DNA of 5,159 nt from a virus (lineage: Duplodnaviria; Heunggongvirae; Uroviricota; Caudoviricetes): the IMG/VR virus record IMGVR_UViG_2671180637_000011; one strand, written 5' to 3'. This document shows, in pieces, positions 70 through 5,040 of the stretch (position 1 is the first letter of the stretch; each line of letters opens with the position of its first letter). The notes under the pieces were generated by a model. The model saw only the letters and a program-made list of their open reading frames with translations, made no database searches and was not told the origin of the DNA. Made by a program: the position numbers and the translations under genes.

Positions 70-1004
70 AGATCCACCCCGTAAATCCAGTCTGTGTTTG
101 TCAGGTCGAGTTTTGGTTTGCTGGCTGTCACGGCTGCCTGTTGCTTGTTACGGTTGATTTCGAGCTGGGTCCACTTGTCGCGGAGTTTGGCCGGACTCAG
201 CACGTTACCGGACCAGAAGTTGTCCTGGCAGGCCCAGCGGAAAAGCACACACATATCGCGGTGGTTACGTCCGTCACGTTCACGCATCAGGCGGATATCG
301 TTAGCCCACCCTGCAAAATTCGGTTTTCTGGCTGATGGCGCGATAGTCTTCACCATGTCAAACATCCACTCTGCGGCGGTCAGGTCTTCTGCTGTTCCCC
401 ACTTGCTGCCGCTCTGAATTGCAGCATCCGGTTTAACCACAGAAAGATCGTTTTCTGGCTGGTCAGAGGATTCGCCAGAATTCTCGGACGAATAATCTTT
501 TCTTTTTTCTTTTGTAATAGTGTCTTTTGTGTCCCCCTGTTTTGAGGGATAGCAATCCCCTAATTTGAGGGATGTTTTATCCCTCGTTTTAGGGGATTTT
601 CCCTCGTTTTGAGGGATGTCCCTCATTTTAGGGGAACCTCCCTCGTTTTGAGGGATGCACCATTCTGAGATGTTTTTATTTGGTCCAAACATGCCGCCTT
701 GCTGCTTGATAATATTCATTCTGACGAGTTCTAACTTGGCTTCATTGCACCGTTTGACAGGTAACTTTGTAATCTCGCTAAGTTGAGAATCGGTGATTCT
801 GTCCATTGGTTTATTCCACCCATAGGTTTTACGCAGAATGGCAAGCAGCACTTTAAACTGTCGCTTGGTCAGATCTGCGCCTGAATAAGCCTCAATCAGC
901 ATATTTGATAGTCTGGCGTAACCATCATCGAGATCTGCCACATTACGCTCCTGTTCGGCAAAGTTACCTCTGCCGAAGTTGAGTATTTTTGCTGTATTTG
1001 TCAT
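66..1004 (-). CDS. O: Replication initiator protein O (lambda O family, iteron-binding)
   Basis: 312-aa ORF from the track. The N-terminal ~110 aa (MTNTAKILNFGRGNFA...VRMNIIKQQGGMFGPNKNISEWCIPQNEG) read as lambda O from memory. The ori iterons lie inside the ORF and encode the repeated IPQNEG linker. It is immediately followed by P. Confidence 0.95.
   Translation of the reverse strand: MTNTAKILNFGRGNFAEQERNVADLDDGYARLSNMLIEAYSGADLTKRQFKVLLAILRKTYGWNKPMDRITDSQLSEITKLPVKRCNEAKLELVRMNIIKQQGGMFGPNKNISEWCIPQNEGGSPKMRDIPQNEGKSPKTRDKTSLKLGDCYPSKQGDTKDTITKEKRKDYSSENSGESSDQPENDLSVVKPDAAIQSGSKWGTAEDLTAAEWMFDMVKTIAPSARKPNFAGWANDIRLMRERDGRNHRDMCVLFRWACQDNFWSGNVLSPAKLRDKWTQLEINRNKQQAAVTASKPKLDLTNTDWIYGVDL
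481..656. repeat. ori-lambda-type replication origin: six direct iterons (532-656) plus adjacent A/T-rich unwinding tract (481-531), embedded in O
   Basis: Six copies of an 18-19 bp unit (plus-strand consensus tCCCTCgTTTTgAGGGAt, itself an inverted repeat) at 532-550, 555-573, 579-597, 599-617, 619-636 and 639-656. The flanking tract 481-531 (rc ACAAAAGACACTATTACAAAAGAAAAAAGAAAAGATTATTCG) matches the lambda ori A/T-rich region as I remember it. Confidence 0.9.
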
Positions 1005-1705: not shown

Positions 1706-1818
1706 TAGTGCCTCCGCTTATCACACAGAGCAACTTTACCATTTTGATAAATAAAACGCAATGAAGATTTATCAAAATGCATATTTATCCATTTGCTAAA
1801 TAGAGGGAGAATCGTGGG
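1706..1818. promoter_or_regulatory. OR-type operator region with divergent PR (minus) and PRM (plus) promoters
   Basis: PR on the minus strand: -35 TTGCGT (rc of 1756-1761), 17-bp spacer, -10 TAAAGT (rc of 1733-1738). Operator half-sites TTTATC/GATAAA at 1746-1751, 1768-1773 and 1784-1789. 17-bp imperfect palindromes TTTACCATTTTGATAAA (1735-1751, overlapping the PR -10) and TTTATCCATTTGCTAAA (1784-1800, next to the cI SD AGGGAGA at 1804-1810). Confidence 0.7.
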
Positions 1819-2791: not shown

Positions 2792-2902
2792 GTGACCCAA
2801 AACGTATTGCCAATCAACAAGAGCTTGCATGACCGAGCTGTTGATGAATTTAATCGTCTGCATGGAACAATGATTGGCGAGATTAGTGCAATGCTGAAGT
2901 AA
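2792..2902 (+). CDS. Hypothetical micro-protein, 36 aa (MTQNVLPINKSLHDRAVDEFNRLHGTMIGEISAMLK), GTG start
   Basis: Hand translation; below the ORF-track size cutoff. AAGGAG (2778-2783) lies 8 nt upstream of GTG 2792. It is the only ORF with a credible SD between cI and OL. The peptide is not hydrophobic. Coding status is uncertain: the SD overlaps the -10 of the promoter above, so the SD would only be used on cI read-through transcripts. Confidence 0.35.
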   Translation: MTQNVLPINKSLHDRAVDEFNRLHGTMIGEISAMLK

Positions 2903-3016
2903 GCTTTTGGCTGAAATGCGCGGATGTGTAGAGCGCGTTCAAAATCTACGCCGCGACTTTGAAGCTCACATCAATCATTCACAAAAAGCGGCTTGATACT
3001 TAAGTTAGATGACAGA

Positions 3017-3045: not shown

Positions 3046-3224
3046 CTCACGATCCCCACACCTAATAACACCTTAACCAATTGTATTTATTGAAAAATTG
3101 ATAGATACAACTTTCTAAACCACGAAATTCTGATCCCCCTCAAGTCTCTTCATTCCTTCTGATAAATTCCCGCAATCAAATAAAAAACCATAATAATCAA
3201 CAGGATATTTGAAAACCCAAACAA

Positions 3225-3268
3225 TTTATCATTTTGCTATTGCCATCAGTTTATCATTTCGATAAAGT
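3225..3268 (+). promoter_or_regulatory. OL operators and PL promoter
   Basis: Two 17-bp operator-like sites with the same half-site as OR: TTTATCATTTTGCTATT (3225-3241) and the perfect palindrome TTTATC-ATTTC-GATAAA (3250-3266). PL: -35 TTGCCA (3240-3245), 17-bp spacer, -10 TAAAGT (3263-3268), the same -10 hexamer as PR. It reads into nutL and N. Confidence 0.6.
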
Positions 3269-3314
3269 CAACTCATCAGCAGGACGCTGTAAGCCCAACG
3301 GAGCAGACTGGCAG

Positions 3315-3360
3315 GCTCTTTAAACAACGTCGAACACTCGACTACGTGGCTGAAAAGCCA
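3315..3360 (+). promoter_or_regulatory. nutL (boxA + boxB)
   Basis: boxA GCTCTTTAA (3315-3323); boxB hairpin TGGC-TGAAAA-GCCA (3347-3360). It lies in the PL leader ~100 nt upstream of N. The CTACGTNGCTGAAAAGCNAG core is shared with nutR. Confidence 0.6.
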
Positions 3361-3458
3361 GATCACCCAACCACATAAGCTGTGGGATGCAATGCCGAAG
3401 TAACCGTCTCAGGAGGAGCTTCGAGATTGCATCGCCAAAGTTTATTCGGGAGGAATCT

Positions 3459-3731
3459 ATGTCCAGAAAAACAGAATTTAAAGGCACCGCAGCTTCTCGA
3501 CGTAGAGCTCGTCGCGCAAACCTGCAAAGTCAGGAGGCGATTAGCTCCGACAAGCTACACAGGCCAACCCCTTCACGAGTGGTCTTGCAATGCAAGCGCA
3601 AACCAGCAATGAGAGCAGAAGTTATAACTCTGACAACGTTGACCAGAAAATATGAAGGTTCAACTTGTCTTCCGAACGTAGCTCTTTACGCGGCAGGCTA
3701 CCGGAAATCAAAACAACTGACAGCGAGGTAA
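3459..3731 (+). CDS. N: N-type transcription antitermination protein (90 aa)
   Basis: Arginine-rich motif near the N-terminus (GTAASRRRARRANLQ), typical of boxB-binding N proteins. SD GGGAGG (3448-3453) 5 nt before ATG 3459. First gene after PL and nutL. The track ORF 3387-3731 is the same frame extended upstream to an ATG without an SD; I prefer the 3459 start. Confidence 0.8.
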   Translation: MSRKTEFKGTAASRRRARRANLQSQEAISSDKLHRPTPSRVVLQCKRKPAMRAEVITLTTLTRKYEGSTCLPNVALYAAGYRKSKQLTAR

Positions 3732-4243: not shown

Positions 4244-4269
4244 AGGCCGCATAGTCGGCCTTTATTTTT
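4244..4269 (+). terminator. Intrinsic terminator after the membrane-protein gene
   Basis: Stem AGGCCG (4244-4249) / CGGCCT (4256-4261) with loop CATAGT, followed by TTATTTTT. Confidence 0.7.
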
Positions 4270-4386
4270 GGCATAAACAACAGAATAAACACTGCACTGT
4301 GCATTCATTCCAACGAGTGAATACACGGAGAAATGTCGCTCATAATTAAACAGGAGCCGACTTGTTCTGATTATTGGAAATCTTCT

Positions 4387-4850: not shown

Positions 4851-4875
4851 GTTATGTATAAATAAGGAGCACACC

Positions 4876-5040
4876 ATGCAATATGCCATTGCAGGGTGGC
4901 CTGTTGCTGGCTGCCCTTCCGAATCTTTACTTGAACGAATCACCCGTAAATTACGTGACGGATGGAAACGCCTTATCGACATACTTAATCAGCCAGGAGT
5001 CCCAAAAAATGGATCAAACACTTATGGCTATCCAGACTAA
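4876..5040 (+). CDS. Small conserved prophage protein, 54 aa (MQYAIAGWPVAGCPSESLLERITRKLRDGWKRLIDILNQPGVPKNGSNTYGYPD); reminiscent of the YdfA-like family of the Qin prophage dicB operon (from memory, unverified)
   Basis: Hand translation; not in the ORF track. Strong SD AAGGAG (4864-4869) 6 nt before ATG 4876; stop TAA 5038-5040. Different frame from the track ORF 4883-5152. Confidence 0.6.
   Translation: MQYAIAGWPVAGCPSESLLERITRKLRDGWKRLIDILNQPGVPKNGSNTYGYPD

Follow-up and report, generated by a model that had tools for sequence, protein, structure and literature searches.

Operators assigned to the H-19B immunity type in the early region of a lambdoid Escherichia coli prophage

The partly symmetric 17-bp sites found between cro and cI and upstream of N in the DNA analysed here (a window of 5,159 nucleotides) are, judged from sequence, very probably the repressor operators of a lambdoid Escherichia coli prophage with H-19B immunity. 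Their sequences, enrichment, conservation, overlap with promoters and identity to annotated H-19B-type sites are confirmed in this analysis. The switch is an already known regulatory system, and the model of it that had been drawn from the letters of the window alone (the original prediction) was right. Existing annotation is extended in three points only: the register proposed for OR2, a leaderless PRM candidate, and the finding that relatives using the half-site TTTAGC conserve the layout.

The window holds a lambdoid early region whose orientation is inverted relative to the usual lambda map (Table 1). After N follow an ORF of PHROG 3054, a DUF2528 gene, cIII with an Rfam thermoregulator, kil and the start of gam. 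The thermoregulator (Rfam Lambda_thermo, 4863-4921, 88.5 bits) lies 5' of a lambda-like cIII start and overlaps it. A strong plus-strand intrinsic terminator (1061-1088) is situated inside the 3' end of cII and antisense to it, where lambda has the terminator of its oop RNA; Rfam gave no match for this terminator region. Compared with near-identical E. coli prophages such as NZ_CP148507, 301 bp are absent from the window (2792-2996, junction 2898/2899). This deletion cuts a 120-aa ORF down to 36 codons and also takes the start of a 42-aa ORF at the 'rex position' between cI and OL, and a sigma-70-like promoter, TTGGCG-17-TATAGT (2761-2789), stands 5' of the truncated ORF remnant. The window as a whole matches, at 99.8%, prophages found in E. 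coli isolates from chicken and from humans.

Table 1. Genes, operators and promoters of the immunity region, in window coordinates.
Feature	Coordinates	Strand	Sequence	Remarks
O	66-1004	minus		gene
Iterons within O	534-656		CCCTCNTTTTGAGGGAT	six direct repeats of about 17-19 bp; lambda-type replication origin
cII	1037-1333	minus		gene
cro	1472-1705	minus		77 aa; 75/77 identical to H-19B Cro; PHROG 35
cro-cI intergenic region	1706-1818			113 bp
OR0	1717-1733		CTTATCACACAGAGCAA	weak fourth right operator; GQ499358 'OR0 repressor binding site' TTTATCACACAGAACAA
PR	1733-1761	minus	TTGCGT (1761-1756)-17-TAAAGT (1738-1733)	exact pattern match; drives cro
OR1	1735-1751		TTTACCATTTTGATAAA	identical to GQ499358 OR1; 16.4 bits, third best in window
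OR2, annotated register	1760-1776		AATGAAGATTTATCAAA	GQ499358 'OR2 repressor binding site' AATGTAAATTTATCATA
OR2, motif register (candidate)	1768-1784		TTTATCAAAATGCATAT	perfect left half, poor right half; one base in common with OR3
OR3	1784-1800		TTTATCCATTTGCTAAA	identical to GQ499358 OR3; 17-19 bits
PRM (candidate)	1784-1812	plus	TTTATC (1784-1789)-17-GAGAAT (1807-1812)	simple sigma-70 matrix
cI	1819-2523	plus		repressor, 234 aa; H-19B cI identity; Peptidase_S24; PHROG 4
Accessory DNA				about 700 bp between cI and the second regulatory region near 3190-3270
OL3	3193-3209		ATAATCAACAGGATATT	weak; GQ499358 'OL3 repressor binding site' AGAATCAATACGATATT
OL2	3225-3241		TTTATCATTTTGCTATT	identical to annotated OL2; 2-bp overlap with PL -35
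PL	3240-3268	plus	TTGCCA-17-TAAAGT	pattern match; drives N
OL1	3250-3266		TTTATCATTTCGATAAA	perfect palindrome; annotated OL1, one spacer base different
N	3459-3731	plus		90 aa; N_peptide family match

The closest annotated counterpart is GenBank GQ499358, the immunity region of phage ST2-8624, which is described there as 'similar to bacteriophage H19-B' and carries seven 'repressor binding sites', OR0 to OR3 and OL1 to OL3. The four full sites of the original prediction coincide, coordinate for coordinate, with OR1, OR3, OL2 and OL1 of this record, and every sequence quoted in it was found where it had been placed. Its operator set was incomplete, since OR0, OL3 and the full OR2 had been missed; a lone TTTATC half-site that had been pointed out at 1768-1773 is present and falls inside annotated OR2. 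When the window is compared with the H-19B type itself, OR1, OR3 and OL2 are identical, OL1 is identical apart from one spacer base, and both have four OR sites (OR0-OR3), three OL sites and TAAAGT as the -10 of PR as well as PL. OR0, OR2 and OL3 differ at two to four positions (three in OL3), with OR0 starting with C in the window and T in H-19B and its right half reading GAGCAA in the window and GAACAA in H-19B; the PR -35 is TTGCGT instead of TTGCGG; about eight substitutions separate the two in the OR1-OR3 interval; and the cI-OL interval holds other genes in the window than in H-19B.

On a larger scale, identity to H-19B, BP-4795, ST2-8624 and many Stx1a phages is about 95% over the stretch that begins at O and ends about 20 bp beyond the PL -10. 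A mosaic junction lies at about 3287, where the similarity to H-19B stops (about 20 bp 3' of the PL -10), and for this reason N and nutL are assigned to a type other than that of H-19B. The N of the window (90 aa, against 127 aa in H-19B) and its leader differ in type from those of H-19B, although the two N proteins both match the N_peptide family or have a C-terminus in common, and a boxB-like hairpin, GGCTGAAAAGCC, is found near 3350-3361. The original claim of a distinct immunity group holds in that the specificity differs from that of lambda; the type itself is the known H-19B one, with cI identical at 233 of 234 residues and a single change, N123K, outside the N-terminal domain. This type was already described by Shi and Friedman (2001, Mol Microbiol 41:585), as cited in PMC8065619, and according to the same citation the OR of H-19B holds four operators. 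An H-19B-type OR together with the corresponding N-terminal domain occurs in 216 of 5426 complete E. coli genomes, and the immunity type is found in 35 phage records.

All sites proposed as 17-bp palindromes of the form TTTATC-N5-GATAAA are present, but an exact match exists only at 3250-3266; the site at 1735 has one mismatch, that at 1784 also one, and that at 3225 three, all in the right half. Nor is the half-site strictly TTTATC / GATAAA, since its position 5 takes T or G (TTTAKC / GMTAAA), so that GCTAAA in OR3 is a consensus half with no mismatch. Because relatives carry TTTAGC, the consensus becomes TTTA(T/G)C, and GCTAAA of OR3 and GCTATT of OL2 fit it better than had been assumed. With up to three mismatches allowed, TTTATC-N5-GATAAA gave ten matches in the window against 3.9 expected, a count reached in 2 of 200 shuffles. 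The pattern TTTAKC-N5-GMTAAA, the degeneracy of which was taken from the sites themselves, gave three matches with at most one mismatch where 0.08 were expected (0 of 300 shuffles), and all three lie within OR or OL, that is in the cro-cI and cI-N intergenic regions. A half-site weight matrix assigned 12-18 bits to the four full sites and at most 9 bits to the remainder of the window, with OL1 obtaining the best score of the window under the window-clade matrix. OR0, OR2 and OL3 scored no higher than the best background 17-mers (OR0 ranked 8 of 5143 by PWM), and support for these three comes from position, conservation and annotation. A similar density of the motif was not seen elsewhere in the window, where the sole comparable match outside OR and OL (4261-4277) has two mismatches and is located in the T-tract of a terminator.

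OR and OL contain 29-35% G+C, the motif itself is AT-rich, and the TAAA of the half-site doubles as part of the PR and PL -10 hexamers, all of which would suit palindromes that arose by chance in AT-rich promoter DNA, or generic elements (UP, -10-like), rather than specific sites. Nevertheless, when only the AT-rich intergenic stretches were dinucleotide-shuffled, the observed counts were reached in 0-1 of 2000 trials. Natural variation speaks against a chance or generic origin as well, since the half-sites are invariant while adjacent AT-rich bases vary. A search of IMG/VR for the first 85 residues of cI yielded 55 loci. Among 21 distinct H-19B-clade variants of OR, 1 of 30 strong half-site positions (five half-sites) varies, compared with 21 of 83 other intergenic positions (p=0.007), and among 19 variants of OL the corresponding figures are 1 of 36 and 25 of 70 (p=9e-5), these Fisher p-values being indicative only because the variants are kin and the tests thus overstate independence. 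The operators of SfIV-type repressors (42% identity), which are unrelated and so mark the limit of the specificity group, and the covariation of the sites with the repressor N-terminal domain across clades (TTTATC to TTTAGC) also tell against the chance or generic reading, which is hardly credible.

The pattern of variation also bears on the length and frame of the operator. The OR1 half-sites and the TTTATC at 1768-1773 are without change in the 21 OR variants, OR3 has a single base changed in one of the 21, OL2 is unchanged in all H-19B-clade variants, and the halves of OL1 are invariant. For OL3 the halves AATC and GATATT are conserved, and for OR0 the left half is TTTATC in 19 of the 21 variants, CTTATC (C1717) occurring only in the window and in locus L042. 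The central 5-bp spacers of OL1, OL3 and OR2, by comparison, vary freely, and invariant halves with free spacers are the pattern expected of a 6-5-6 operator. It is unlikely that the operator is instead longer than 17 bp, for instance a 19-bp ATTTATC-N5-GATAAAT, or shifted by 2 bp as in KU238070, where oR1-oR3 correspond to window positions 1737-1753, 1763-1779 and 1786-1802. It is true that the left flank is frequently A and the right flank T, but positions 1734, 1752 and 3249 vary among natural variants and the 6-bp halves do not, and the shifted frames have almost no dyad symmetry. The KU238070 frames, which were ruled out on this logic of symmetry and conservation, begin with TACC or TATC like lambda operators, suggesting annotation by analogy with lambda. 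The 17-bp site with two 6-bp halves is the preferred reading. Besides the seven sites, a third left operator had been considered at 3150-3166 (TCATTCCTTCTGATAAA); it was rejected, as H-19B has a different half-site there with an 11-bp offset and the L052 type has none.

The layout is preserved in diverged relatives that use a modified half-site. In four IMG/VR contigs (L053-L056) the repressor joins an N-terminal domain about 62% identical to that of the window to a C-terminal domain of the ordinary lambda-like kind, and the Cro of these contigs, about 80% identical, has an unchanged helix-turn-helix stretch; in Klebsiella phage KO-TP1 (PQ571297) the N-terminal domain is about 50% identical. 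In this group, at about 50-65% identity of the N-terminal domain, the half-site is mostly TTTAGC / GCTAAA, whereas site number, order and spacing and the promoters are kept, aside from OR0, which is absent from L053-L056 and KO-TP1. Their OR1 reads TTTAGCGTTATGCTAAA and is followed by a 16-nt gap with the PR -35, after which TTTAGC-N5-GCA(T/C)AT overlaps by one base with TTTATC-N5-GCTAAA. OR1, OR2 and OR3 are accordingly 33 and 16 bp apart, and OL3, OL2 and OL1 33 and 25 bp apart, the OL3 at 33 bp from OL2 being a better site than that of the window. PR takes the form TTGC..-17-TAAACT, and a candidate PRM is placed as in the window. In KO-TP1 the annotated start of the repressor (L059, PQ571297, 2426-3178; locus 2426) lies inside the phage's own OR1 and PR region, and homology points to the ATG at locus 2501 as the probable true start. 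An inverted-repeat search of KO-TP1 gave no match, as arms of 6 bp are shorter than the search threshold.

Both early promoters are as had been described, TTGCGT-17-TAAAGT for PR and TTGCCA-17-TAAAGT for PL, with an operator over each -10. OR1 covers the PR spacer and overlaps the -10 by four bases, OL1 covers most of the PL spacer and likewise overlaps the -10 by four bases, and OR0 overlaps the predicted PR start and adjoins the cro Shine-Dalgarno sequence. Among minus-strand sigma-70 candidates, PR ranks first in four of the five clade representatives; in H-19B it comes second. Its position does not change across the five, and that of PR and PL, each with an operator-overlapped -10, is kept in three diverged clades. 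The identity of the two -10 hexamers, which had been taken as support for the model, is real but is weaker evidence than implied; it is partly forced, because TAAA, four of the six bases, also ends the overlapping operator half GATAAA or GGTAAA.

Two registers come into question for OR2. GQ499358 places OR2 at 1760-1776, presumably from published H-19B footprints, and this position gives lambda-like spacings of about 25 and 24 bp, 25 bp being also the OL1-OL2 distance. That OR2 lies there, with the TTTATC at 1768-1773 not read as a canonical half-site, is plausible though somewhat short of probable. The annotated 17-mer is unlike the motif, however, scoring -10 to -20 bits with the half-site matrix (rank about 1900), and its left part (1760-1767) varies within the clade and bears no relation to the corresponding bases of L053-L056 and KO-TP1. 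TTTAKC at position 1768, by contrast, is kept in every one of them. By its orientation this conserved half-site sets the dyad at 1776 and hence a site at 1768-1784. The resulting arrangement, TTTAKC-N5-GCAYAT separated by 33 bp from OR1 and by 16 bp from OR3, recurs in L053-L056 and KO-TP1, and the 33-bp spacing recurs once more between OL3 and OL2 in these relatives. It is proposed with a little less than even confidence that the database OR2 is mis-registered and that the real OR2 would be 1768-1784, made up of TTTATC and a degenerate GCATAT half and three helical turns from OR1.

A promoter for cI may be placed in the same stretch. Of the plus-strand sigma-70 candidates, the proposed PRM scores highest in four of the five clade representatives, and it sits at one and the same place in each of the five. 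The end of its -10 lies 7 nt upstream of the A that opens the cI ATG (1819), for which reason a leaderless cI mRNA is predicted that would start at A1819. Two other PRM candidates, TAAATA (1797-1802) and CATATT (1780-1785), were discarded because the invariant T6 or A2 is missing or because they are not conserved in H-19B.

The protein encoded by cI belongs to known repressor families, matching PHROG 4 'transcriptional repressor' (E=8e-38) and the repressor family PHROG 5736. Its C-terminal part is an S24 peptidase domain (PF00717 Peptidase_S24, E=3.8e-16) with Ser140 and Lys177 as Ser/Lys dyad, 37 residues apart, and the Ser/Lys spacing of LexA is likewise 37 residues. Gly106 stands 34 residues before Ser140, as in LexA, and self-cleavage is predicted at Leu105-Gly106 instead of the usual Ala-Gly. 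Residues 23-67 match HTH_3 with 17.3 bits (E=0.005), under the cut-off of 23. A PDB sequence search for a solved relative of cI returned only spurious pseudoazurin matches, and no Pfam match was obtained for Cro. The C-terminal domain of cI is 96-97% identical to 933W-type repressors and the N-terminal domain is limited to the 35 phage records, so cI is a domain mosaic. RecA-stimulated self-cleavage and operator binding are reported for H-19B and 933W in the literature cited in PMC8065619 and PMC3202840.

The window and 933W are thus alike in the C-terminal domain of the repressor, where a Leu-Gly cleavage context is predicted for both, and unlike in the N-terminal DNA-binding domain and the operators. 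PMC8065619 gives three sites for the OR of 933W but no more than two for its OL. The 933W repressor, which shares this C-terminal domain, is reported to bind non-cooperatively (review PMC3202840), and the possession of a 933W-type C-terminal domain is one point in which the window cI differs from that of lambda.

Several features are common to the window and lambda. Both have divergent cro and cI, operators over PR and PL, three OL sites in a second cluster 5' of N, 17-bp partly symmetric operators with one good and one poorer half, and a repressor with an S24 domain of the self-cleaving kind. The candidate PRM of the window would give a leaderless cI mRNA and have an operator centred near -42/-43, as in lambda. 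The half-site, in contrast, is TATCACCGC in lambda and TTTATC in the window, and the window phage and lambda are therefore heteroimmune. A fourth right site, OR0, downstream of the PR -10 is found in the window and not in lambda, and the centre-to-centre distances, which are 24 and 23 bp in lambda, amount to 18, 33 and 16 bp in OR (taking the motif register of OR2) and to 32 and 25 bp in OL.

Taken together, a switch of the following kind is proposed. Dimers of the 234-aa cI, each subunit having a putative N-terminal helix-turn-helix domain and a C-terminal S24 domain predicted to be self-cleaving, would bind partly symmetric 17-bp sites with the consensus TTTA(T/G)C-N5-G(A/C)TAAA. Binding to OR1 (PR -10 and spacer) together with OR0 (PR start) would block transcription of cro, cII, O and P, and binding to OL1 (PL spacer and -10) together with OL2 (touching the PL -35) would block N, with OL3 as a weak upstream site; repression would presumably act by promoter occlusion. 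OR2 and OR3, between PR and cI, would control the promoter of cI itself, OR2 as an activator site centred at -43 of the leaderless PRM and OR3 as a site of repression that covers the PRM -35. By analogy, Cro may bind the same sites as cI, and the order in which the sites would be filled is likewise a matter of inference.

In the H-19B immunity type, this set of repressor and operators decides between prophage silence and induction. Among the Stx-converting members, for example H-19B, BP-4795 and many Stx1a phages, the release of toxin is coupled to induction, and for this reason the H-19B-type operators were reportedly characterised in a study of 2001. The analysis gives the immunity region of the window a sound annotation. 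If the proposed OR2 register is true, one 33-bp geometry would have been kept all the way from the Stx phages of E. coli to a phage of Klebsiella. OR2 would then sit at -43 relative to a leaderless PRM whose -35 is occupied directly by OR3, and the switch would reach lambda-like autoregulation with operators arranged differently from those of lambda and with a repressor domain that is reportedly non-cooperative.
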